Part shown: positions 2,330-48,876 of the stretch, in pieces
How positions within the stretch are numbered: the stretch's first letter is position 1
Layout: every line of letters begins with the position of its first letter
Assembly: GCF_054482525.1 (NCBI RefSeq)
Contig: NZ_CM137006.1
Strand: one strand, 5' to 3'
DNA: 64,000 bases
The notes under the pieces: model-generated
Databases searched by the model: none
What the model was told of the DNA's origin: nothing
Seen by the model: the letters and a program-made list of their open reading frames with translations, nothing else
Translations under genes and position numbers: made by a program

Positions 2330-3668
2330 CATAAGCGCTAACTTAAGGGTTGAACCATCTGAAGAATGCGACGCCTCGGTGCCTCGTTAAGACGATGCCT
2401 CGCGTTCTTCAATTGCGTTTTGTAGGCTGTCAGGGATACTGTCCCACGAATGGCCACCTGTAAGCTCCAGATGACCATTTTTGTTATTCTCCACAACGAG
2501 TTAGTTCTTCTTTTCGGATCCGGCACTTCTGGGGGGGAAATCCAGCGATGGCTGGATTATGTCGTCAATTAAAAATGCGGCGAGTAGATTAGCAAATATC
2601 CACGCTTTCGCGAGTTCAGGTTCCTTTGCACGCAAAGCATCCAGGTGCAGCAAACTTTTGAGCCGCTTAAAAGCCAGTTCAATTTGCCATCGCAGACGGT
2701 AACAATCAGCCACTTGCTCTGCTGAATATTCATCTTCCGGTAATGATGTTAGCAATAGCACATGGCCCGCTGCTTCCAGCGTTTCCGCCTGAACTACTCG
2801 TCCTTTTCGACGATTCTCGCTGAGCAGTCGGGTTTTACTGATTAATGCTTTTTCGGGAGGAAGTGATACGGCAATGAGACGTGCCGGAAAGGGAGCTCCG
2901 GCTTTTTTATTACCTGAATTGCCTATCATTACAGTGGTTTCACCGTTCTTACCGCAATCCAGCCCGCGCAGAAAACCCATCATGTCAAAGCGCATTCCTT
3001 CTGCAGTTAACCAGCGCAATCCTCGCCAGTGAACCCGGACGATATAATCAGCTTCTCCAAAAGCAAGTGAGCGGATACATTCGGGACGCGAACCGAATCC
3101 CCGGTCAGCAATGCGTATCTCGTCTGCCGTTTGCGCAAATCGGTCCAGCCGTTCAGCGTCTCTGCTGTCGGTTAGCTCAAAATCAGTGAACTGACAGGTA
3201 TGAGGATCATATCCCATATGTAGTCGCCATTCAGCGCTGCCGCCCCCGGGCGCACTGATTGCTGTTCCATCGACAAGACGCAATCTCTTTCCGCTTGTAC
3301 AACCCGTAACTGCGGCGCGTACAGCAAGTGTTTGTGCGGCAAGTATGCCAAACCAGTCGGCGGCATTCCGCAGCCGCTTCAGGAGAGCCACGTCAGATAA
3401 TGTTGCAACGTCATGGAGCTGAGCCCATGCAGTGACTTCACGTAATGACATCCCCCCGGGGCCGTAAGCCAGCCCCAGACGTAGCAGAGTTGCAGCATCA
3501 CGAATTTCGCGGCGGCGGGTTAGAGCCCCGGCATTACGTGCCGAAGTATCCAGTTCTTCGGGCTTACCAATATGGGCCAGAATTGCTGACCAGTTATCGT
3601 GAGAGTAATTCATCGGCACGTTAAATCATATCAGGCGTAATACCACAACCCTTAAGTTAGCGCTTATG
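2330..3668 (-). mobile_element. IS186 (IS4 family), copy 1, 1339 bp
   Basis: Terminal inverted repeats cataagcgctaacttaagggttg (2330-2352) and its reverse complement (3646-3668); flanked by direct repeat ggattactcc (10-bp target duplication) within a GGGG-N6-CCCC hotspot. Confidence 0.92.
2501..3619 (-). CDS. insL: IS186 transposase InsL
   Basis: 372-aa ORF MPMNYSHDNWSAILAHIGKPEEL... (canonical start probably at MNYSHD, 3613); identical protein to the copy-2 ORF. Confidence 0.92.
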   Translation of the reverse strand: MPMNYSHDNWSAILAHIGKPEELDTSARNAGALTRRREIRDAATLLRLGLAYGPGGMSLREVTAWAQLHDVATLSDVALLKRLRNAADWFGILAAQTLAVRAAVTGCTSGKRLRLVDGTAISAPGGGSAEWRLHMGYDPHTCQFTDFELTDSRDAERLDRFAQTADEIRIADRGFGSRPECIRSLAFGEADYIVRVHWRGLRWLTAEGMRFDMMGFLRGLDCGKNGETTVMIGNSGNKKAGAPFPARLIAVSLPPEKALISKTRLLSENRRKGRVVQAETLEAAGHVLLLTSLPEDEYSAEQVADCYRLRWQIELAFKRLKSLLHLDALRAKEPELAKAWIFANLLAAFLIDDIIQPSLDFPPRSAGSEKKN

Positions 3669-4181: not shown

Positions 4182-5520
4182 CATAAGCGCTAACTTAAGG
4201 GTTGTGGTATTACGCCTGATATGATTTAACGTGCCGATGAATTACTCTCACGATAACTGGTCAGCAATTCTGGCCCATATTGGTAAGCCCGAAGAACTGG
4301 ATACTTCGGCACGTAATGCCGGGGCTCTAACCCGCCGCCGCGAAATTCGTGATGCTGCAACTCTGCTACGTCTGGGGCTGGCTTACGGCCCCGGGGGGAT
4401 GTCATTACGTGAAGTCACTGCATGGGCTCAGCTCCATGACGTTGCAACATTATCTGACGTGGCTCTCCTGAAGCGGCTGCGGAATGCCGCCGACTGGTTT
4501 GGCATACTTGCCGCACAAACACTTGCTGTACGCGCCGCAGTTACGGGTTGTACAAGCGGAAAGAGATTGCGTCTTGTCGATGGAACAGCAATCAGTGCGC
4601 CCGGGGGCGGCAGCGCTGAATGGCGACTACATATGGGATATGATCCTCATACCTGTCAGTTCACTGATTTTGAGCTAACCGACAGCAGAGACGCTGAACG
4701 GCTGGACCGATTTGCGCAAACGGCAGACGAGATACGCATTGCTGACCGGGGATTCGGTTCGCGTCCCGAATGTATCCGCTCACTTGCTTTTGGAGAAGCT
4801 GATTATATCGTCCGGGTTCACTGGCGAGGATTGCGCTGGTTAACTGCAGAAGGAATGCGCTTTGACATGATGGGTTTTCTGCGCGGGCTGGATTGCGGTA
4901 AGAACGGTGAAACCACTGTAATGATAGGCAATTCAGGTAATAAAAAAGCCGGAGCTCCCTTTCCGGCACGTCTCATTGCCGTATCACTTCCTCCCGAAAA
5001 AGCATTAATCAGTAAAACCCGACTGCTCAGCGAGAATCGTCGAAAAGGACGAGTAGTTCAGGCGGAAACGCTGGAAGCAGCGGGCCATGTGCTATTGCTA
5101 ACATCATTACCGGAAGATGAATATTCAGCAGAGCAAGTGGCTGATTGTTACCGTCTGCGATGGCAAATTGAACTGGCTTTTAAGCGGCTCAAAAGTTTGC
5201 TGCACCTGGATGCTTTGCGTGCAAAGGAACCTGAACTCGCGAAAGCGTGGATATTTGCTAATCTACTCGCCGCATTTTTAATTGACGACATAATCCAGCC
5301 ATCGCTGGATTTCCCCCCCAGAAGTGCCGGATCCGAAAAGAAGAACTAACTCGTTGTGGAGAATAACAAAAATGGTCATCTGGAGCTTACAGGTGGCCAT
5401 TCGTGGGACAGTATCCCTGACAGCCTACAAAACGCAATTGAAGAACGCGAGGCATCGTCTTAACGAGGCACCGAGGCGTCGCATTCTTCAGATGGTTCAA
5501 CCCTTAAGTTAGCGCTTATG
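4182..5520 (+). mobile_element. IS186 (IS4 family), copy 2, 1339 bp, inverted relative to copy 1
   Basis: Same 23-bp terminal inverted repeats (4182-4204 and 5498-5520); same ggattactcc flanking duplication in a second copy of the hok 3-prime region; internal ORFs are identical to copy 1. Confidence 0.92.
4231..5349 (+). CDS. insL: IS186 transposase InsL
   Basis: 372-aa ORF identical to the 2501..3619 protein. Confidence 0.92.
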   Translation: MPMNYSHDNWSAILAHIGKPEELDTSARNAGALTRRREIRDAATLLRLGLAYGPGGMSLREVTAWAQLHDVATLSDVALLKRLRNAADWFGILAAQTLAVRAAVTGCTSGKRLRLVDGTAISAPGGGSAEWRLHMGYDPHTCQFTDFELTDSRDAERLDRFAQTADEIRIADRGFGSRPECIRSLAFGEADYIVRVHWRGLRWLTAEGMRFDMMGFLRGLDCGKNGETTVMIGNSGNKKAGAPFPARLIAVSLPPEKALISKTRLLSENRRKGRVVQAETLEAAGHVLLLTSLPEDEYSAEQVADCYRLRWQIELAFKRLKSLLHLDALRAKEPELAKAWIFANLLAAFLIDDIIQPSLDFPPRSAGSEKKN

Positions 5521-20339: not shown

Positions 20340-22576
20340 GTGGACTGGCTTCTTGATGTTTTTGCTACCTGGCTCTACGGCTTAAAAGTAATCGCGATAA
20401 CGTTAGCGGTCATCATGTTCATCAGCGGGCTGGACGATTTTTTTATTGATGTCGTCTACTGGGTACGCCGCATTAAACGCAAGTTGAGTGTTTATCGCCG
20501 CTACCCGCGAATGAGTTACCGCGAACTGTATAAACCAGATGAAAAACCGTTAGCGATTATGGTTCCGGCGTGGAATGAAACGGGCGTCATCGGCAATATG
20601 GCCGAGCTGGCGGCGACCACGCTCGACTATGAAAACTATCATATCTTTGTTGGCACCTACCCCAACGACCCCGATACTCAGCGTGATGTTGACGAAGTGT
20701 GCGCTCGCTTCCCAAACGTGCATAAGGTAGTCTGCGCGCGTCCTGGCCCCACCAGCAAAGCCGACTGCCTGAACAACGTGCTGGACGCCATCACCCAGTT
20801 TGAGCGTAGCGCCAATTTCGCATTTGCTGGTTTTATTCTGCATGACGCCGAAGATGTGATTTCACCGATGGAATTGCGTCTGTTCAACTATCTGGTCGAG
20901 CGTAAAGATCTGATTCAGATCCCGGTGTACCCATTCGAACGCGAATGGACGCACTTCACCAGCATGACTTACATTGATGAGTTTTCAGAACTGCATGGCA
21001 AAGATGTTCCGGTGCGTGAAGCCCTTGCCGGACAGGTGCCCAGCGCAGGCGTCGGCACCTGTTTCAGCCGCCGCGCCGTGACCGCACTGTTAGCTGACGG
21101 TGACGGTATTGCTTTCGACGTGCAGAGTCTTACTGAAGATTACGACATTGGTTTCCGCCTGAAAGAAAAAGGTATGACGGAAATTTTTGTCCGTTTTCCG
21201 GTGGTGGACGAAGCCAAAGAACGCGAGCAGCGTAAATTTTTACAGCACGCGCGGACGTCAAACATGATCTGCGTGCGCGAATATTTCCCCGATACCTTTT
21301 CGACTGCGGTTCGACAAAAATCTCGCTGGATCATCGGCATTGTTTTCCAGGGCTTTAAAACCCACAAATGGACCTCCAGTCTGACGCTGAACTACTTTCT
21401 CTGGCGCGACCGCAAAGGGGCAATCAGTAACTTTGTCAGCTTCCTCGCGATGCTGGTGATGATCCAGCTTTTGCTGTTGCTGGTGTATGAAAGTTTGTGG
21501 CCCGATGCCTGGCATTTCCTTTCTATTTTCAGCGGCAGCGCATGGTTAATGACTCTGCTGTGGCTAAACTTTGGCTTGATGATTAACCGCATCGTGCAGC
21601 GGGTGATTTTCGTTACTGGCTACTACGGCCTGACGCAGGGGCTGCTATCTGTCCTGCGTCTTTTCTGGGGCAACCTGATTAACTTCATGGCCAACTGGCG
21701 CGCGTTAAAACAGGTACTTCAACACGGCGATCCACGTCGCGTCGCGTGGGATAAAACAACGCATGACTTCCCCAGCGTGACTGGCGATACCCGCTCGTTG
21801 CGTCCGTTAGGTCAAATCCTGCTGGAAAATCAGGTCATCACTGAAGAACAACTCGATACAGCACTGCGTAATCGCGTCGAAGGTCTACGCCTGGGCGGTT
21901 CAATGCTGATGCAGGGGCTGATTAGCGCCGAACAGCTGGCACAGGCGCTGGCAGAGCAAAACGGCGTGGCGTGGGAATCCATCGACGCCTGGCAGATCCC
22001 GTCCTCGCTGATTGCCGAAATGCCGGCCTCCGTGGCGCTGCATTATGCAGTGCTGCCGCTGCGTCTGGAAAATGATGTGTTAATTGTCGGCAGTGAAGAT
22101 GGTATTGACCCGGTTTCGCTGGCAGCCCTGACGCGTAAAGTCGGACGCAAAGTGCGTTACGTCATTGTTCTGCGGGACAAATTGTCACGGGGTTACGTCA
22201 CTGGTATGCACGCCGACGCGGTCACGATCCGCGGGCAATGTTGTACAATGCGGTTCAGCATCAGTGGCTCACGGAACAGCAGGCCGGTGAAATCTGGCGG
22301 CAATATGTGCCGCATCAGTTCCTGTTCGCCGAAATACTGACCACGCTCGGTCATATTAATCGTTCAGCAATTAACGTGTTGTTATTGCGCCATGAACGCA
22401 GTTCTCTGCCGCTCGGCAAGTTTTTGGTCACCGAAGGCGTTATCAGCCAGGAAACGTTGGATCGCGTCCTGACAATTCAACGCGAATTACAAGTTTCGAT
22501 GCAATCACTATTACTCAAAGCAGGTTTAAACACAGAACAGGTTGCGCAACTGGAGTCCGAAAATGAAGGAGAATAA
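20340..22576 (+). pseudogene. nfrB: nfrB (phage N4 adsorption protein B, family 2 glycosyltransferase) with an apparent -1 frameshift near 22200-22240
   Basis: N-terminal 666-aa ORF (20340..22340) and C-terminal 112-aa ORF (22238..22576) are in different frames; total span is 2237 nt, not a multiple of 3; both parts read as one NfrB-like protein. Confidence 0.7.
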
Positions 22577-25535
22577 CCTTAATCGCGTCATCGGATGGTC
22601 TGGTTTACTGCTGACGTCTTTATTGAGTACCAGCGCACTCGCAGACAATATCGGCACCAGCGCAGAAGAGCTGGGGCTGAGCGATTATCGCCATTTTGTT
22701 ATTTATCCCCGTCTCGACAAGGCGCTGAAGGCACAGAAAAATAACGACGAAGCAACCGCCATCCGCGAATTTGAATATATACACCAGCAGGTGCCGGATA
22801 ATATTCCGCTAACTTTATACCTTGCGGAAGCCTATCGCCATTTTGGTCATGATGCCCGGGCGCGGCTGTTGCTTGAGGATCAACTGAAACGTCACCCAGG
22901 AGATGCCCGACTTGAGCGCAGTCTGGCGGCTATTCCAGTTGAAGTGAAAAGCGTTACGACTGTTGAAGAACTGCTTGCCCAGCAAAAAGCGTGCGACGCT
23001 GCGCCGACCCTGCGTTGTCGCAGTGAAGTTGGGCAGAATGCCCTGCGGCTGGCACAATTACCTGTCGCCAGAGCGCAACTGAACGATGCGACGTTTGCTG
23101 CATCGCCGGAAGGAAAAACGCTGCGAACCGATCTGCTGCAACGCGCAATCTACCTGAAACAATGGTCCCAGGCAGATACGCTATACAATGAAGCACGCCA
23201 GCAGAACACATTAAGCGCGGCAGAACGCCGCCAGTGGTTTGATGTGCTTCTTGCCGGGCAGCTGGACGATCGGATCCTGGCGCTGCAATCACAGGGGATC
23301 TTCACCGATCCTCAGTCATATATTACTTACGCGACCGCGCTGGCTTATCGTGGCGAAAAAGCACGCCTCCAGCGTTATCTCATTGAAAATACTCCGCTAT
23401 TTACCACGGACGCACAAGAGAAAAGTTGGCTCTATCTGTTATCTAAATACAGCGGCAACCCCGTTCAGGAGTTGGCGAATTATACGGTACAGTTTGCCGA
23501 CAACCGCCAGTATGTTGTTGGCGCGACGCTACCGGTGCTGTTAAAAGAAGGTCAGTACGACGCAGCGCAAAAACTGCTCGCCACCCTCCCCGCCAATGAA
23601 ATGCTTGAGGAGCGTTATACCGTTAGCGTAGCGACCCATAACAAGGCTGAAGCTCTGCGTCTGGCACGATTGCTGTATCAGCAAGAACCGGCAAATCTTA
23701 CCCGCCTGGATCAACTGACCTGGCAACTGATGCAGAACGAGCAGTCACGCGAAGCTGCCGATTTATTGCTGCAACGCTATCCTTTCCAGGGCGATGCGCG
23801 TGTCAGCCAGACTTTAATGGCGCGACTGGCGTCTCTGCTGGAAAGTCATCCTTACCTGGCAACGCCGGCGAAGGTGGCGATTTTATCGAAACCCTTACCG
23901 CTGGCGGAGCAACGTCAGTGGCAAAGTCAGTTGCCGGGTATTGCAGATAATTGCCCGGCAATAGTTCGCTTGCTGGGCGATATGTCGCCTTCCTACGATG
24001 CCGCCGCCTGGAACCGTCTGGCAAAGTGTTATCGGGACACGCTACCCGGTGTGGCGTTGTATGCATGGCTTCAGGCCGAACAACGACAACCGAACGCCTG
24101 GCAACATCGTGCGGTAGCCTATCAGGCGTATCAGGTTGAGGACTACGCCACCGCACTGGCGGCCTGGCAGAAAATCAGTCTTCACGACATGAGCAATGAG
24201 GATCTGCTTGCTGCTGCCAATACCGCCCAGGCGGCAGGAAATGGTGCGGCTCGCGATCGCTGGCTTCAGCAGGCAGAACAACGTGGGCTGGGAAACAATG
24301 CCCTCTACTGGTGGCTGCATGCGCAACGTTACATTCCTGGTCAGCCGGAACTCGCACTGAACGATCTCACGCGCTCAATCAATATTGCGCCTTCTGCCAA
24401 CGCTTACGTTGCGCGGGCGACAATTTATCGCCAACGTCATAATGTCCCGGCGGCGGTGAGTGATTTGCGCGCCGCTCTGGAACTGGAACCGAATAATAGC
24501 AACACCCAGGCAGCGCTCGGTTACGCCTTGTGGGATAGCGGTGATATCGCACAGTCGCGGGAAATGCTCGAACAGGCGCATAAAGGGCTACCGGACGATC
24601 CGGCACTTATCCGACAACTGGCCTACGTGAACCAGCGTCTGGATGACATGCCTGCGACGCAGCACTACGCCCGGCTGGTGATTGATGACATTGATAATCA
24701 GGCGCTGATAACCCCACTGACCCCAGAGCAAAATCAGCAACGCTTCAATTTCCGCCGTCTGCATGAGGAGGTCGGTCGCCGCTGGACGTTCAGTTTCGAT
24801 TCTTCTATCGGCTTGCGTTCCGGCGCAATGAGTACCGCTAACAATAATGTCGGCGGCGCAGCGCCAGGGAAAAGCTATCGTAGCTACGGGCAACTGGAAG
24901 CCGAGTACCGTATCGGACGCAATATGCTGCTGGAAGGCGACCTGCTCTCAGTTTATAGCCGCGTCTTTGCCGATACCGGTGAAAACGGGGTGATGATGCC
25001 GGTGAAAAATCCGATGTCCGGCACCGGTCTGCGCTGGAAGCCGCTGCGCGATCAGATCGTTTTCCTCGCCGTCGAACAGCAGTTGCCGCTGAACGGGCAA
25101 AATGGCGCATCCGATACCATGCTGCGCGCCAGCGCCTCATTCTTTAATGGCGGCAAATACAGCGACGAATGGCACCCGAACGGTTCAGGCTGGTTTGCCC
25201 AAAACCTGTACCTCGATGCGGCGCAATATGTCCGCCAGGATATTCAGGCGTGGACGGCAGATTATCGCGTAAGCTGGCATCAGAAGGTGGCGAACGGACA
25301 GACTATTGAGCCTTACGCTCACGTTCAGGACAACGGTTATCGTGATAAAGGCACTCAGGGCGCGCAGCTTGGCGGTGTCGGGGTCCGCTGGAATATCTGG
25401 ACCGGCGAGACGCACTACGACGCCTGGCCGCACAAACTCAGTCTCGGCATCGAATATCAACATACCTTTAAGGCGATTAATCAACGTAACGGAGAGCGCA
25501 ACAACGCGTTTCTCACCATTGGAGTGCACTGGTAA
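22563..25535 (+). CDS. nfrA: Phage N4 receptor outer membrane protein NfrA
   Basis: 990 codons from MKENNLNRVIGWSGLLLTSLLSTSALA (signal peptide); TPR-like region and C-terminal beta-barrel-like segment. Confidence 0.9.
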   Translation: MKENNLNRVIGWSGLLLTSLLSTSALADNIGTSAEELGLSDYRHFVIYPRLDKALKAQKNNDEATAIREFEYIHQQVPDNIPLTLYLAEAYRHFGHDARARLLLEDQLKRHPGDARLERSLAAIPVEVKSVTTVEELLAQQKACDAAPTLRCRSEVGQNALRLAQLPVARAQLNDATFAASPEGKTLRTDLLQRAIYLKQWSQADTLYNEARQQNTLSAAERRQWFDVLLAGQLDDRILALQSQGIFTDPQSYITYATALAYRGEKARLQRYLIENTPLFTTDAQEKSWLYLLSKYSGNPVQELANYTVQFADNRQYVVGATLPVLLKEGQYDAAQKLLATLPANEMLEERYTVSVATHNKAEALRLARLLYQQEPANLTRLDQLTWQLMQNEQSREAADLLLQRYPFQGDARVSQTLMARLASLLESHPYLATPAKVAILSKPLPLAEQRQWQSQLPGIADNCPAIVRLLGDMSPSYDAAAWNRLAKCYRDTLPGVALYAWLQAEQRQPNAWQHRAVAYQAYQVEDYATALAAWQKISLHDMSNEDLLAAANTAQAAGNGAARDRWLQQAEQRGLGNNALYWWLHAQRYIPGQPELALNDLTRSINIAPSANAYVARATIYRQRHNVPAAVSDLRAALELEPNNSNTQAALGYALWDSGDIAQSREMLEQAHKGLPDDPALIRQLAYVNQRLDDMPATQHYARLVIDDIDNQALITPLTPEQNQQRFNFRRLHEEVGRRWTFSFDSSIGLRSGAMSTANNNVGGAAPGKSYRSYGQLEAEYRIGRNMLLEGDLLSVYSRVFADTGENGVMMPVKNPMSGTGLRWKPLRDQIVFLAVEQQLPLNGQNGASDTMLRASASFFNGGKYSDEWHPNGSGWFAQNLYLDAAQYVRQDIQAWTADYRVSWHQKVANGQTIEPYAHVQDNGYRDKGTQGAQLGGVGVRWNIWTGETHYDAWPHKLSLGIEYQHTFKAINQRNGERNNAFLTIGVHW

Positions 25536-26426
25536 ATGCGTAAGTTCATTTTCGTATTGCTGACACTGCTTTTGGTCAGCCCTTTTTCCTTTGCGATGAA
25601 AGGTATTATCTGGCAGCCACAAAACCGTGATAGTCAGGTTACCGATACCCAGTGGCAGGGGCTGATGAGTCAGTTACGTTTGCAAGGCTTCGATACCCTG
25701 GTTTTGCAATGGACCCGTTACGGCGATGCATTCACCCAGCCAGAACAGCGCGCGTTATTGTTTAAGCGTGCCGCAGCTGCGCAACAGGCTGGCCTGAAGC
25801 TGATTGTCGGGCTGAATGCCGATCCGGAATTTTTTATGCACCAGAAACAGTCATCCGCGGCGCTGGAAAGCTATCTTAACCGCCTGCTGGCTGCCGATCT
25901 CCAGCAAGCCAGATTATGGAGCGCCGTACCTGGCGTAACGCCGGATGGCTGGTACATCAGCGCGGAAATTGACGACCTGAACTGGCGCAGCGAAGCCGCC
26001 CGTCAGCCTTTGCTGACATGGTTAAACAACGCGCAGCGGTTGATTAGCGATGTTTCAGCAAAACCGGTTTATATCAGTAGTTTTTTCGCCGGAAACATGT
26101 CGCCCGATGGCTATCGCCAACTGCTGGAACACGTTAAAACAACCGGCGTTAATGTCTGGGTACAGGATGGCAGCGGCGTGAATAAACTTACCGCTGAACA
26201 GCGTGAACGTTATCTACAGGCCAGCGCCGATTGCCAAAGTTCCGCCCCTGCCAGCGGCATTGTTTATGAACTGTTTGTCGCCGGCAAAGGCAAAACCTTT
26301 ACAGCGAAACCGAAACCGGATGCAGAGATCGCCTCGCTGTTAGCGAAACGTTCCTCTTGCGGTAAAGACACGCTCTATTTCTCTCTGCGCTATTTGCCCG
26401 TTGCGCACGGCATTCTCGAGTATTAA
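25536..26426 (+). CDS. ybcH: Uncharacterised exported protein YbcH
   Basis: 296-aa ORF with signal peptide, start overlapping the nfrA stop. Confidence 0.85.
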   Translation: MRKFIFVLLTLLLVSPFSFAMKGIIWQPQNRDSQVTDTQWQGLMSQLRLQGFDTLVLQWTRYGDAFTQPEQRALLFKRAAAAQQAGLKLIVGLNADPEFFMHQKQSSAALESYLNRLLAADLQQARLWSAVPGVTPDGWYISAEIDDLNWRSEAARQPLLTWLNNAQRLISDVSAKPVYISSFFAGNMSPDGYRQLLEHVKTTGVNVWVQDGSGVNKLTAEQRERYLQASADCQSSAPASGIVYELFVAGKGKTFTAKPKPDAEIASLLAKRSSCGKDTLYFSLRYLPVAHGILEY

Positions 26427-26608
26427 ATCTCCTCCAGGTAAGTCGGGTACGACCTGGCTTACCTCTTTCGCTCTCGTCAGAATTCCATCAAGATTAATTG
26501 CTAAAAAGCGTGCTAAAGAAAGAAGATCGTTATCGGCGAACGGGCCGATCACTCATGCAGGAAGCATAGATCCTTTGAGCGGAGTTTCTGATATCTGAGG
26601 AGTGCGAA

Positions 26609-27370
26609 ATGCAATTGAGCAGTAGTGAACCTTGCGTGGTGATCCTGACCGAAAAAGAGGTAGAGGTAAGCGTTAATAACCATGCTACGTTTACCCTTCC
26701 GAAAAACTACCTGGCCGCCTTCGCGTGCAACAATAACGTCATTGAACTCTCAACGTTAAATCACGTATTAATCACCCACATCAACCGTAACATCATCAAC
26801 GATTATCTGTTGTTTTTAAATAAGAACTTAACCTGCGTAAAGCCCTGGTCGCGGCTGGCAACCCCGGTTATCGCTTGTCATAGCCGTACACCGGAAGTGT
26901 TCCGGCTAGCCGCCAACCACAGCAAGCAGCAACCCAGCAAACCCTGCGAAGCGGAGTTGACGCGCGCATTGCTTTTTACCGTATTGTCTAACTTTCTTGA
27001 GCAATCGCGGTTTATTGCCCTACTGATGTATATCTTACGCAGTAGCGTCCGCGACAGCGTCTGCCGCATTATTCAAAGCGATATTCAGCATTACTGGAAT
27101 CTGCGAATTGTCGCCAGTTCGCTATGTTTAAGCCCCAGCCTGCTCAAAAAGAAATTAAAAAACGAAAATACCAGCTATAGCCAGATTGTCACAGAGTGTC
27201 GTATGCGTTACGCCGTACAGATGTTATTGATGGATAACAAAAATATCACTCAGGTAGCGCAATTATGTGGCTATAGCAGCACGTCGTACTTTATCTCTGT
27301 TTTTAAGGCGTTTTACGGCCTGACACCGTTGAATTATCTCGCCAAACAGCGACAAAAAGTGATGTGGTGA
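26609..27370 (+). CDS. envY: AraC-family transcriptional regulator EnvY
   Basis: 253-aa ORF with C-terminal AraC-type HTH (..YSSTSYFISVFKAFYGLTPLNYL..). Confidence 0.88.
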   Translation: MQLSSSEPCVVILTEKEVEVSVNNHATFTLPKNYLAAFACNNNVIELSTLNHVLITHINRNIINDYLLFLNKNLTCVKPWSRLATPVIACHSRTPEVFRLAANHSKQQPSKPCEAELTRALLFTVLSNFLEQSRFIALLMYILRSSVRDSVCRIIQSDIQHYWNLRIVASSLCLSPSLLKKKLKNENTSYSQIVTECRMRYAVQMLLMDNKNITQVAQLCGYSSTSYFISVFKAFYGLTPLNYLAKQRQKVMW

Positions 27371-27415
27371 AGGGCAAAGCGGAAACAGATAAGACGGGCA
27401 TAAATGAAGAAGAAA

Positions 27416-27492
27416 TGGCGCGCCCTGCAGGATTCGAACCTGCGGCCCACGACTTAGAAGGTCGTTGCTCTATCCAACTGAGCTAAGGGCGC
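27416..27492 (-). tRNA. argU: tRNA-Arg (anticodon UCU), argU
   Basis: Reverse complement reads GCGCCCTTAGCTCAGTTGGATAGAGCAACGACCTTCTAAGTCGTGGGCCGCAGGTTCGAATCCTGCAGGGCGCGCCA; cloverleaf with TCT anticodon and encoded CCA end. Confidence 0.95.
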
Positions 27493-27734
27493 GTTGATAC
27501 CGCAATGCGGTGTAATCGCGTGAATTATACGGTCAACCCTTGCTGAGTCAATGGCTTTTGATCTGTTTGCTGAACAAGTGAACGACCGCGTCTGATTTTC
27601 TGATTTATTTCGCTATAGCGGCAAACAAACGTACACCGCTGCGCGTCTGAATCAAGAAAACCCGTATTTTCATGTATCAAAGTACAATTTCCCGCCCTAA
27701 CGGAAAATTGTCCGATCCTATGAGACTGGTAACT

Positions 27735-28367
27735 ATGAAACCAACGTCGGTGATCATTATGGATACTCATCCTATCATCAGAATGTCTATTGAAGTTCTG
27801 TTGCAAAAAAACAGTGAATTGCAAATTGTCCTGAAAACGGATGATTATCGCATAACCATCGATTATCTCCGAACCCGTCCTGTTGATTTAATCATTATGG
27901 ATATAGACTTGCCCGGAACAGACGGTTTTACCTTCCTGAAAAGGATCAAACAAATCCAGAGCACAGTGAAAGTATTATTTTTATCATCGAAATCAGAATG
28001 CTTTTATGCTGGCAGAGCGATACAAGCTGGTGCTAACGGTTTTGTCAGTAAATGCAATGATCAGAATGATATTTTTCACGCCGTTCAGATGATCCTCTCC
28101 GGATACACTTTTTTCCCCAGCGAAACGCTCAACTATATAAAAAGCAATAAATGCAGTACGAATAGTTCAACGGTCACGGTGCTATCTAATCGTGAAGTGA
28201 CCATATTACGTTATCTGGTTAGCGGATTATCCAATAAAGAAATTGCCGATAAGTTATTACTTAGCAATAAAACAGTTAGTGCGCATAAATCTAATATTTA
28301 TCGCAAGCTAGGTTTGCATTCAATTGTAGAGCTTATCGACTACGCCAAATTATATGAATTAATATAA
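27735..28367 (+). CDS. fimZ: LuxR/FixJ-family response regulator FimZ
   Basis: 210 codons from MKPTSVIIMDTHPIIRMSIEVLL...; receiver domain plus C-terminal LuxR HTH. Confidence 0.9.
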   Translation: MKPTSVIIMDTHPIIRMSIEVLLQKNSELQIVLKTDDYRITIDYLRTRPVDLIIMDIDLPGTDGFTFLKRIKQIQSTVKVLFLSSKSECFYAGRAIQAGANGFVSKCNDQNDIFHAVQMILSGYTFFPSETLNYIKSNKCSTNSSTVTVLSNREVTILRYLVSGLSNKEIADKLLLSNKTVSAHKSNIYRKLGLHSIVELIDYAKLYELI

Positions 28368-28369
28368 TA

Positions 28370-28885
28370 TTAATTATAATTGATCATAAATATCGCATCC
28401 GCTTTCGCCACACCTGGCTGAACACCGCTGGCTAACGCTCGATAATTGGCAAAAAAGTTTAGTGTGACATTGCCATTTGCATCTACTTCCTCAGTCGGGC
28501 TCGCCTCCCCCAGTGCGAGCCGGGAGCGATCGCTATTACGTAATTCGATGGCGACGGTTTGTGCCATTGCGGGATCATCCAAAGCCAGCAGGTTGGCATC
28601 AGCTGCCGGCGTTCCCGTAAATAAAATCGCAACTGAACCCGGAGGACATCCCTCCAGCCGCAGGCTAAAAGGGACGAGTGCCGTGGTATCGCCAGCGCTC
28701 AGTAATTGTGTCGTAGGCCATCTGCCTAAATCTACCGTCTTATCCTTATCCGCTGTGTTTACGGTACAGGAGAAATCAACAACGTTACCGTGCAAATTGA
28801 TATTAATCGTTCCTAAAGGGTCAACTGCCCATCCACTGGAACTCCACAGTAGCCCGCAGAAACAGCTAAAGAGTACTCTTCTCAT
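28370..28885 (-). CDS. sfmF: Fimbrial-like subunit SfmF
   Basis: 171 codons from MRRVLFSCFCGLLWSSSGWA; fimbrial subunit C-terminus. Confidence 0.85.
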   Translation of the reverse strand: MRRVLFSCFCGLLWSSSGWAVDPLGTININLHGNVVDFSCTVNTADKDKTVDLGRWPTTQLLSAGDTTALVPFSLRLEGCPPGSVAILFTGTPAADANLLALDDPAMAQTVAIELRNSDRSRLALGEASPTEEVDANGNVTLNFFANYRALASGVQPGVAKADAIFMINYN

Positions 28886-28895
28886 TCTCCGTACC

Positions 28896-29903
28896 TCATT
28901 GATAATCGACGCGTAAATACCCCAGCGCGCTAAACGGCCCTTCGGTCGGTTTTTGACCGGTAATACTGATAGGCCAGGCGCGAAGTGTGACATTGGCTGC
29001 CGCAGCTGCATCCAGACGGAAAGGAATAACGCTATTGAGATCGTTAGGCGTGATCGGCGTATCGTTCTGATCGGCCACAATAAAACCTAAATCCTGATTG
29101 TCCGACACCATCGCCTGACCAGAAACGGCACTGGCTTCCAGACGCATTGTTAAATAAGCCTGCGCAGCAACATTCGTACATTTGATCGCAATGCTCTTGG
29201 TTTGCGGCATGACACCAGCTGGTCGATTCCCCGGCCCTGCCGCACTAAATAACGATGCGCCGATATCACCAAAATCAAATTCAACAATTTGCCCGGCATT
29301 TAATTCGCAGTTTTGCGGTACTTCAACCCGGCCCCCAAAACTAATGGTATAAACAGGTGTAACCAACGGATCGTTAGGCGTTGATGTCACATACACGGTA
29401 AACATCACCTGTCTGGGGATCTCCACCATGTTAATAAAGGGACGAATAACCTTTAAACGAAATATCAAACGAGAATCCATCACCCCGAACGGAAGGTTTT
29501 GCGAAACGTTAGGATCTGTTCCCATACGAATATAATTTTGCGGGGGGAATTGAATATCCATCACGCTATCAACCAGACTCATCGCACCTAATAGATAATC
29601 ATTTAATTGCATATATTTATAATTATCGATAGTTTCCTGAACAATAAAGTTGGTGACATAACTACGGTATGTATAATTCACCAGCGTGCCGGGTGGACAA
29701 ATTGCTGACACACCTACCCAGCCGGATTTTTCCGGTAAAACAACAATCTGGCCTGGCTGGTTATTGGTGCTATTAAAGACATTTGAGAGATCATAGTGTT
29801 CATCTTCTGCTACGCCAGTACTATTTGCACAAACAGTAGCCCAGGATATGTTTGCCAGACACAAACATGCCATTGCCAATAATAATCTGCAGATTATCTT
29901 CAT
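28896..29903 (-). CDS. sfmH: Fimbrial tip adhesin-like protein SfmH
   Basis: 335-aa track ORF (a start at MACLCLANISWA would give 325 aa); FimH-like position in the operon. Confidence 0.85.
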   Translation of the reverse strand: MKIICRLLLAMACLCLANISWATVCANSTGVAEDEHYDLSNVFNSTNNQPGQIVVLPEKSGWVGVSAICPPGTLVNYTYRSYVTNFIVQETIDNYKYMQLNDYLLGAMSLVDSVMDIQFPPQNYIRMGTDPNVSQNLPFGVMDSRLIFRLKVIRPFINMVEIPRQVMFTVYVTSTPNDPLVTPVYTISFGGRVEVPQNCELNAGQIVEFDFGDIGASLFSAAGPGNRPAGVMPQTKSIAIKCTNVAAQAYLTMRLEASAVSGQAMVSDNQDLGFIVADQNDTPITPNDLNSVIPFRLDAAAAANVTLRAWPISITGQKPTEGPFSALGYLRVDYQ

Positions 29904-29915
29904 TGATAATTTCCT

Positions 29916-32525
29916 TTATGAGCCAGGATGTGTGCAAACTGCCGAAATAACAGTGACGGCTTGCTGTAAGCTTTGCTTCGGCAATACATAGTGCGCAATG
30001 CAGCGTGAGTTCGCGCCGTCTCCCCACTGAACCAGTAATTCACCAGACAATGGCGCACCGCTTAAATAAACTTGCCCGTCATCACCCACCATACTGGTTA
30101 TTCCGGTACTGTTTTCCCGTACCAGTGATCCAAACGGCACCGGTTTTCCGCCCTGGGTAACGGTAATGAGCGCCCGCACGCCTATGCGGGTATCAAAATT
30201 GGCACGAACCAACGCGCCTTGCGTCGGCACAACGCTGCTAATATTTTTTTCAACATCGATGGAATTCCCCATCGTATTGGTATCAAGCGCGATACGGTTA
30301 TACCGATAAACCGTGGCATACGGCATCACCGCATAGCCGCGCCAGTCGGTTAAAATGCCAGTTTGATTTTCAATGCGTACACCGCCTGCGCCAGGCGCTT
30401 TAATCAAAACATTGGTATCCCCTAAAGGCTGGCTCAGCGTTATGCCATTTTCATGTCCGACCACACCGCCAGACAGCTGCCAGTTAACGTCATGTTGATC
30501 GCGGTCGTAGTTATACCCGACCCCCAGCGTACCGTAAGCGGCCTGCCAGTTTGCCGTGGCGCTGCCCGTATACCCATTATTCGAGGTATCGCCCTGGCTT
30601 ACGTGATAACTCAGGTTGTGGCCTTCCAGTAAGGTCCCACCAACGCCTGCCAGCCAGCTATTTTGCCCGTTGCTGTTACGGTTGGCGTTAAAGGAGGCAT
30701 AAGCGCGGTCGAGCGCATTTTCCCGGGTGTAGCGACGTTTGGTCAGAACATTGAAAGGCACTGAAACATTAAGTCCGACAATACGTTCGTTATCGGGGAT
30801 CCCTACAGATTCATTCCACGAAAATGAGAGTGAATAACTGATGCCAACCCAGCTGCTGGTATACCCCACCTGATACCAGGTATCTGAATCCGAAGTATTC
30901 CAGTATTTTTGATGGGTACCAGAAATATAAAGCGAGCCAAAGTCATTAAGTGATTGTGAAATATTTAACTGTAAACGGTCTTTACGACTAAAGCGTAAAT
31001 TGTGGTAATTCACGATTATCGGTTCATCGCGATGCTCACCGTCATAATCGTAATCATATTCGTACCCCTCCATTCGACGATACGCAACATCATCAAGGGT
31101 ATAAAAACCTTGTGTCGAATAGCGGTAACCCATTAACTGAAAATTGGTGCCGAAAGTGTTCATTGATTTCGCATAGAGGAAGCGAATGGAATCCCCCTCA
31201 TGACGACTGTCGTCGGCTAACTGACTGCGCGCATGCGTTACATCCAGCGACACTGCGCCCCAGTTCCCGAGATTGCGCCCCAGCCCTAATAAAAAGGCGG
31301 TGTAATTGGCAGATAATTGCGTCCCGCCGTAGGCAGTAAATTCCTGTGGTAAACCGCCGAGTGCCGTGCCCTGAAAAAAGAAAGGCGACGATTGCTGACT
31401 ATTACCGCTACGAAAATCGCCCGCCGTCAGGTCAAATTTGAAACGCCCTTCGCGTTGTAAAATCGGCACTGTTGAATACGGAATTGTATAATTCTGCTGA
31501 TTGCCATCGCGCTCGTCGATGGTGACATCCAGATCGCCATTTGAAGATGTCGGGTGCAAATCTGTAATTTCAAAAGCGCCGGGGGAAACATAGCTTTGAT
31601 AGATAATAAAACCATTTTGCCGAATCGTTAGCTGGGCCGCCGTACGGGCAATCCCACGTACCGTTGGGGCAAACCCTTGCTGGCTATCAGGATACATATT
31701 ATCGGAAGAATAAAGCCGTACACCACGAAATCCAACGCCATCGAAAATATCACTTCCTGTATTGCCGTCTCCCATTACCAGTTCACTTTTCAGCGGAATA
31801 ATGGCGCGCTGTACCCAGGTGCCAATATTATTCCACTGTTCTGAATGATATCCATTTCCGCGAAAATAGTTCCAGGAACCATTGTTGCGTAAACGCCACG
31901 GGCCAATATTAATCCCGCTGAGCTCACTAAAAAAATAGCTATCGTTACCATTACCTCTGTTACCGGTGAAATTATAATTCAGGAGTAAAGCAGGAATACC
32001 TTCATCCCACTCTTCAGGCGGAATGTAACCGTGAGCGCTACTCAACAACGCTATCTGAGGAATAGTGATGTTCAGGCGCATCGCTGCAAAATCAAAGTTA
32101 ATTGTGGCATCAGGTACAGCTTTCAGTAAATTAATGCATTTATTATTTTGCTGCTGGGCTAACTCGGGGAATGCACTGCTATTAAGGCCAATTCGTTCAA
32201 GGAGTGCCTGATTAAAACAAGGCATTAACCCACCTGATTTATCACCTGTATTTACTGTCGTCGATTCAAATACGATATCCTGTGAACCAATGAACTCATC
32301 ATTACGCCAGAGATCCACCCGATACACGCCCGCAGGTTGATGATTACCTCTCTCAAAGCGCGATAAATCAGCAACGGATGTGCCATTCTCTAATAAAAAT
32401 GCCGGGTTGAAATAACTTTCCGCATAGCTTAAAAAGGAGGGTAAAATGGCAAGAGATGAATAACAAATTCCGGCCAGACACCAGGTATACCTCTGCGGAA
32501 TATCCGTAGTAGTGGGTATTTTCAT
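29916..32525 (-). CDS. sfmD: Fimbrial outer membrane usher SfmD
   Basis: 869-aa ORF, usher family. Confidence 0.92.
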
Positions 32526-46832: not shown

Positions 46833-47155
46833 TTATTGAGACAGGACTTTCTTATGATTACACATTTTCGTCAAGCCATAGAAGAAACGCTGCCCTGGCT
46901 TTCCTCTTTTGGCGCTGACCCAACGGGTGGGATGACCCGTTTACTTTATTCGCCGGAATGGCTGGAAACTCAGCAGCAATTTAAAAAAAGAATGGCAGCA
47001 AGCGGGCTGGAAACACGTTTCGATGAAGTGGGGAATTTATATGGTCGCCTGAGTGGCACCGAATATCCACAAGAAGTGGTTCTGAGCGGTTCGCATATCG
47101 GGTGATGCTGCCAACTTACTGATTTAGTGTATGATGGTGTTTTTGAGGTGCTCCA

Positions 47156-47431
47156 GTGGCTTCTGTTTCTATCAGCTGTCCCTCCTGTTCAGCTACTGAC
47201 GGGGTGGTGCGTAACGGCAAAAGCACCGCCGGACATCAGCGCTATCTCTGCTCTCACTGCCGTAAAACATGGCAACTGCAGTTCACTTACACCGCTTCTC
47301 AACCCGGTACGCACCAGAAAATCATTGATATGGCCATGAATGGCGTTGGATGCCGGGCAACTGCCCGCATTATGGGCGTTGGCCTCAACACGATTTTACG
47401 TCACTTAAAAAACTCAGGCCGCAGTCGGTAA
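47156..47431 (+). CDS. insA: IS1 protein InsA
   Basis: 91-aa [43 protein letters not shown]... Confidence 0.93.
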
Positions 47432-47853
47432 CCTCGCGCATACAGCCGGGCAGTGACGTCATCGTCTGCGCGGAAATGGACGAACAGTGGGGCTATGTCG
47501 GGGCTAAATCGCGCCAGCGCTGGCTGTTTTACGCGTATGACAGTCTCCGGAAGACGGTTGTTGCGCACGTATTCGGTGAACGCACTATGGCGACGCTGGG
47601 GCGTCTTATGAGCCTGCTGTCACCCTTTGACGTGGTGATATGGATGACGGATGGCTGGCCGCTGTATGAATCCCGCCTGAAGGGAAAGCTGCACGTAATC
47701 AGCAAGCGATATACGCAGCGAATTGAGCGGCATAACCTGAATCTGAGGCAGCACCTGGCACGGCTGGGACGGAAGTCGCTGTCGTTCTCAAAATCGGTGG
47801 AGCTGCATGACAAAGTCATCGGGCATTATCTGAACATAAAACACTATCAATAA
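47350..47853 (+). CDS. insB: IS1 InsB reading frame (expressed as InsAB-prime by -1 frameshifting)
   Basis: 167-aa ORF in the -1 frame overlapping the insA 3-prime end. Confidence 0.88.
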
Positions 47854-48876
47854 GTTGGAGTCATTACCCGCATATCGATACCGTGGTTAACGGCGGTAAC
47901 CTCGACGGGCAATTCGGCGCGCTGGCGGCGTGGCTGGCAATTGACTGGTTGAAAACGCAATACGGCGCGCCGTTACGTACGGTCGAAGTGGTGGCGATGG
48001 CAGAAGAAGAAGGCAGCCGCTTCCCGTATGTCTTCTGGGGCAGTAAAAATATCTTTGGGCTGGCGAATCCTGACGACGTGCGGAATATCTGTGATGCCAA
48101 AGGAAATAGTTTTGTCGATGCGATGAAGGCTTGCGGATTTACTCTGCCGAACGCCCCACTAACTCCGCGTCAGGATATTAAAGCCTTTGTCGAACTGCAT
48201 ATCGAACAGGGCTGTGTGCTGGAAAGTAATGGGCAGTCAATTGGCGTGGTGAATGCAATTGTCGGGCAGCGTCGTTATACGGTGACGCTGAATGGCGAAT
48301 CAAACCATGCAGGCACCACGCCGATGGGTTATCGTCGTGATACGGTTTACGCTTTCAGTCGCATTTGCCATCAGTCGATCGAAAAAGCGAAAAAGATGGG
48401 CGACCCGCTGGTGCTGACCTTTGGCAAGGTGGAGCCGCGCCCGAATACGGTGAATGTGGTACCGGGTAAAACCACGTTCACCATTGATTGTCGTCATACC
48501 AACGCTGCCGTGCTGCGCGATTTCACCCAGCAGTTAGAAAACGACATGCGGGCGATTTGCGATGAAATGGACATTGGTATTGATATCGATTTATGGATGG
48601 ACGAAGAACCCGTGCCGATGAATAAGGACCTGGTCGCCACCCTGACAGAATTGTGTGAAAGAGAAAAACTGAATTACCGGGTGATGCACAGTGGTGCCGG
48701 GCACGACGCGCAAATTTTCGCGCCTCGCGTACCAACCTGCATGATTTTTATCCCCAGCATCAACGGGATCAGCCATAACCCGGCGGAACGCACCAATATT
48801 ACCGACCTTGCCGAAGGGGTCAAAACGTTGGCACTCATGCTTTATCAACTTGCCTGGCAGAAATAAGGAGTCATAA

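Follow-up and report, generated by a model that had tools for sequence, protein, structure and literature searches.

The window, by which we mean the whole 64,000-nucleotide stretch of DNA analysed, carries a compact chromosomal interval in which the features follow each other in the order fimZ - argU - 45 bp - envY - ybcH - nfrA (Table 1). The argU gene is the single tRNA gene detected by ARAGORN in the 64-kb window, where it was called as tRNA-Arg(TCT). It is intact and identical to argU of K-12 (b0536), it forms a cloverleaf with the anticodon TCT, and it is adjoined by fimZ as in K-12. The left-hand chromosomal neighbour of argU is fimZ, after which sfmF, sfmH and sfmD follow on the minus strand. 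On the other side, the 3' end of argU (27416) faces the stop codon of envY, whose last base is 27370, so that envY borders the putative attachment site described below on its right-hand chromosomal side. In the identical 2-kb stretch of strain PCN033 the RefSeq names of the corresponding genes are ybcH, envY, tRNA-Arg, fimZ and sfmF.

The distance between the envY stop codon and the 3' end of argU, given as about 45 bp in the initial annotation, was found to be exactly 45 bp (27371-27415). Being an adjacency of genes and no statistical signal, it raises no question of chance. This spacer resembles the K-12 chromosomal flank just outside attR, from which it is two SNPs apart in a three-way alignment, and no intrinsic terminator was predicted within the envY/argU spacer. 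A 47-bp segment, here called the core, comprises the 45 nt at the 3' end of argU, which run from the anticodon loop to the CCA, and the 2 nt that follow downstream. Upstream of argU a promoter was predicted, composed of TTGACT, a 16-nt spacer and TATAAT, with 11 of 12 consensus matches and an identical sequence in K-12; judging from these motifs, this sigma-70 promoter-like site probably serves as the argU promoter.

Table 1. Features at and around the argU/envY junction, in window coordinates
Feature	Position	Strand	Basis
nfrA	22542-25535	+	ORF list
ybcH	25536-26426	+	ORF list
envY, AraC-family regulator, 253 aa	26609-27370	+	ORF list; annotated envY in identical PCN033 sequence; collinear with K-12 b0566
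Native envY/argU spacer, 45 bp	27371-27415	none	Alignment with K-12; sequence itself
Putative attB core, 47 bp, CTTCTAAGTCGTGGGCCGCAGGTTCGAATCCTGCAGGGCGCGCCATT	27414-27460	-	Three-way alignment; BLAST overlap; identity to phage Kati/Turner segment
argU, tRNA-Arg(UCU)	27416-27492	-	ARAGORN; three-way K-12 alignment
Promoter-like site upstream of argU, sigma-70 type	27524-27551	-	Consensus scan; K-12 alignment
fimZ, LuxR-family fimbrial regulator	27735-28367	+	PCN033 annotation mapped to window; ORF list

Comparison with K-12 MG1655

In the genome of K-12 MG1655 (NC_000913.3), the cryptic prophage DLP12 is annotated at 564755-586056 (21.3 kb), between argU and envY. The order of genes is sfmD-sfmH-sfmF-fimZ-argU, then DLP12, and then envY-ybcH-nfrA-nfrB. 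The prophage comprises intD, xisD, IS3, emrE, ybcK, rusA, quuD, nmpC::IS5 and the lysis genes, and further borD, nohD, tail-fibre fragments, appY and ompT. The location of ompT inside DLP12 is textbook knowledge; PMC2947995 contains no information on the locus.

The reference stretch used for comparison spanned MG1655 560000-592000. BLAST of the window against it returned two segments, 21518-27463 and 27414-32222, both with approximately 98% identity and overlapping at 27414-27463 only, that is, at the core; the DLP12-internal sequence of this reference stretch had no match in the window. The window junction was then aligned with K-12 attL and K-12 attR. In this three-way alignment the window tracks K-12 attL across the argU promoter and argU itself, 47 invariant columns are common to all three sequences, and past the core the window tracks the K-12 attR flank into envY. 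The window junction is the left flank of K-12 attL, a single 47-bp core and the right flank of K-12 attR, with no bases extra or missing.

Prophage genes were also sought at the protein level. Ten DLP12 proteins were searched by tblastn against the whole 64-kb window and none was found, save that AppY weakly matched its AraC-family paralogue EnvY. The ORF list contained no integrase or other prophage ORFs near the site (24-31 kb). A DLP12 lysogen has intD directly after argU and a second core beside envY; the window has one core and no intD.

The initial annotation had stated that DLP12 and ompT lie between argU and envY in K-12, and had concluded that the 3' end of argU in the window is an empty integration site in a strain lacking both. 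The MG1655 annotation bears out the first statement, with the prophage present from intD to appY and ompT, and the alignment with the K-12 argU-envY interval, which had been proposed as a check, shows K-12 to be without the window's junction. The empty site is upheld by the exact and scarless attL-left, core and attR-right recombinant. The absence of ompT and DLP12 holds for the argU/envY locus, at which the ORF list, BLAST and tblastn gave neither ompT nor DLP12 proteins.

Partner phages and interpretation of the site

When argU and its flanks were compared with a phage collection, the matches were temperate Escherichia phages carrying just the 3' core. The core is conserved at 47 of 47 positions in phages Kati and Turner, where it lies beside their integrase, at approximately 98% over 50-54 bp in 2G7b, ev243 and the PhiR series, and at 94% in two Salmonella phages. 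In Kati (PP925833.1, 3434-8480) the order is appY-ompT-core-int, and its proteins are close to those of K-12 (AppY 100%, OmpT 99.7% and the integrase 99% identical to IntD). In 2G7b (LR595866.1, 25615-30664) an annotated omptin, the core and an integrase are found in that order. In both of these sequenced temperate phages, OmpT is full-length and is encoded next to attP and an IntD-type integrase. In the Kati annotation the ompT CDS is named only 'hypothetical protein' and the attP core has been mis-called as tRNA-Pro.

The feature in the window is almost certainly the unoccupied attB of DLP12/IntD-type lambdoid phages, situated in the 3' part of argU: the junction is recombinant, the core lies at the 3' end of a tRNA gene, the same core occurs as attP in phages, and prophage genes are absent. 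The mechanism of att recombination by tRNA-targeting tyrosine integrases is established, and by analogy with these enzymes the following sequence of events would apply. As its attP, the phage would carry, adjacent to the integrase gene, 47 bp that duplicate the 3' end of argU, and Int would recombine attP with attB to insert the phage. Insertion would restore a complete argU at attL, flanked by int, and would leave the second copy of the core at attR next to envY. The appY and ompT genes, located on the other side of attP from int, would land at attR, as in the K-12 layout. In the source lineage no such phage occupies the site, and the locus accordingly lacks intD, appY and ompT. With appY and ompT being cargo that the phage carries next to attP, the lack of a prophage accounts for both genes missing at the argU/envY locus. 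As far as its sequence indicates, the intact site should still accept an IntD-type phage.

Closest relatives and frequency across E. coli

The closest complete relative is PCN033 (NZ_CP006632.1), to which the window is 99.85% identical over 40.7 kb. PCN033 is a porcine ExPEC strain of phylogroup D and serotype O11 (PMC4578781). Five finished genomes are 100% identical to the window over the 2-kb junction, and the junction is contiguous in each of the 60 chromosomes whose junction haplotype comes closest (99.0% identity or more). As a proxy for the rest of the source genome, a concatenated probe consisting of the 2-kb junction and K-12 ompT was searched. Among these 60 chromosomes a single matching place was obtained in 59, including PCN033, 042 and all five genomes with a 100% identical junction; in these 59, a K-12-type ompT on the chromosome and a further copy of argU or the core are therefore both absent.

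The frequency of the different junctions was assessed in 5,426 complete E. coli genomes, by counting the genomes with one contiguous match to each probe. The empty junction was found in 2,537 genomes (approximately 47%) with a 401-bp probe and in 2,447 with a 2-kb probe, and its identity to the window was 98.5-100% in the sampled matches. The K-12 argU-intD junction (attL) probe matched 2,746 genomes and the K-12-type ompT-attR-envY junction probe 1,577. The argU site shows a presence/absence polymorphism with a split close to 50:50, and the empty state is an already known and very common strain polymorphism. ST131-type genomes (e.g. NZ_OX637964.1, 3615910-3616718) have a divergent ompT allele (92.7%), and in them the match to the K-12 attR probe stops where the att core ends, without reaching envY; this lineage therefore has a different sequence from K-12 beyond attR.

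We suggest only tentatively that the nearly even split reflects ongoing lysogenic conversion by live appY-ompT phages (Kati, 2G7b), beyond the decay of an ancient prophage, and that the site, in its phylogroup-D and ExPEC-like background, is a ready landing pad. If this were true, one infection could make the strain chromosomally OmpT+/AppY+, and the new part would be only the scale and the current activity of lysogenic conversion.

Alternative explanations and history of the site

One alternative is that the lineage was once lysogenic and lost the prophage together with ompT and appY, whether Int/Xis excised it precisely or RecA recombined the two 47-bp cores; the empty state would then be a derived one. 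Site-specific excision gives exactly such a scarless product, the occupied/empty split across E. coli implies frequent gain or loss, and excision of DLP12 in K-12 is inducible by Hha according to work cited in PMC4632033. However, the contiguous junction in all of the nearest haplotypes argues for an empty state that is stable and long-standing in the clade, and there is no prophage remnant of any kind at the site, so we regard an excision in the past as unlikely. A never-occupied and an excised site are identical in sequence; the choice between them is a question of history and not of the identity of the feature, which on either history is an empty attB.

To approach the ancestral state, one genome of each species was scanned for the pattern of envY stop, spacer and argU 3' end, and no empty junction was found in other Escherichia. 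The sole match was a contig labelled 'MAG: Collinsella sp.' (JAIJJM010000316.1, 3,563 bp), which is E. coli DNA with the 3' end of envY, the spacer, the att core and ompT, as well as an alpha/beta hydrolase like the neighbour of ompT in phage 2G7b. This contig is an occupied E. coli attR, and it most likely entered an actinobacterial MAG by binning contamination. Since the sole match is an occupied attR, the species scan is uninformative on the ancestral state.

It is extremely improbable that the assembler joined across the 47-bp core and dropped a real prophage. Direct repeats flanking an insert do pose a generic risk of this kind, but a repeat of 47 bp falls below the length of any sequencing read, the contiguous junction recurs in the 2,537 finished genomes counted above, five of the finished genomes being 100% identical over 2 kb, and collinearity of the window with PCN033 extends over more than 40 kb around the site. 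Laboratory strains made ompT-negative by deletion are known, E. coli B/BL21 having become ompT-negative through a larger deletion, yet a non-specific deletion of this type in place of a site-specific empty att site has practically no chance of applying here. The three-way alignment refutes it, since the breakpoints coincide with the att core to the base; moreover, envY, ybcH, nfrA and argU are all kept, and no IS or extra sequence lies at the junction.

Omptin genes beyond the argU locus

The statement that ompT is lacking applies to the chromosomal argU/envY locus, and a strain-wide reading of it exceeds the 64 kb. For PCN033, ompT has been reported on the ColV-type plasmid PCN033p3 (PMC4578781). 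On the plasmid sequence p3PCN033 (NZ_CP006635.1), positions 88373-89326 encode an 'omptin family outer membrane protease' of 317 aa, with 73% protein and 73.5% DNA identity to K-12 OmpT. This omptin gene is too divergent to be found by megablast with K-12 ompT, and high-stringency DNA typing consequently under-reports the paralogue. The presence of a plasmid omptin in PCN033 shows that a strain with an empty argU site need not be omptin-free, and the claim of the initial annotation that the strain lacks ompT is possibly wrong at the family level. The result is of use for virulence-gene typing and for predicting lysogenisation by argU-targeting phages; otherwise its value lies mainly in correct annotation.

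Other differences in the window

Three further differences from PCN033 were observed elsewhere in the window. An IS1 of 768 bp at 47101-47868, absent from PCN033, interrupts allC (allantoate deiminase) and is flanked by a 9-bp target-site duplication, CGCATATCG, at 47092-47100 and 47869-47877. A probe for the IS1/allC junction gave no clean identical match in the complete-genome collection. Between entD and ybdK, two identical 1,337-bp IS copies in inverted orientation (approximately 2331-3667 and 4183-5519), likewise absent from PCN033, lie on either side of one unit of the hokE duplication. They contain 372-aa transposase ORFs (2501-3619 on the minus strand and 4231-5349 on the plus strand) and 38-nt ends that are imperfectly complementary (95%), and they resemble IS186.

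In nfrB, the window (CTGCGGGACA) has 1 nt deleted from a run of G at approximately 22174-22177 relative to both K-12 (CTGCGGGGACA) and PCN033 (CTGCGCGGACA). The gene is split into a 666-aa ORF (20340-22340) and a 112-aa ORF (22238-22576), compared with 745 aa when whole. Either the frameshift in this c-di-GMP-activated glycosyltransferase is real, or the homopolymer was misread in sequencing. Just upstream of the nfrB deletion, at 21554-22078, SNPs relative to PCN033 are clustered.

Comparison with known systems

Compared with the DLP12 attL and attR of K-12 MG1655, the site in the window has the same flanking genes, an identical argU and 47-bp core, and flanks that are approximately 98% identical. 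The difference is that K-12 has two copies of the core with the 21.3-kb prophage between them, whereas in the window a single core is present and the prophage DNA is missing altogether. Two phylogroup D strains show the same contiguous junction and the same gene order, with the 2-kb junction 100% identical in PCN033 and 99.2% identical in 042 (NC_017626.1). PCN033 differs from the window in being without the IS1 in allC, the two IS186-like copies near hokE and the 1-nt nfrB deletion. The omptin of p3PCN033 is like OmpT in being an outer-membrane protease of the same family and the same length, and differs in being located on a plasmid and unrelated to the argU site. The phages Kati and 2G7b share the same 47-50-bp core with the window (100% in Kati and 98% in 2G7b); in the phages it is the partner site, attP, whereas in the window it is the bacterial site, and the comparison shows which element would fill it.
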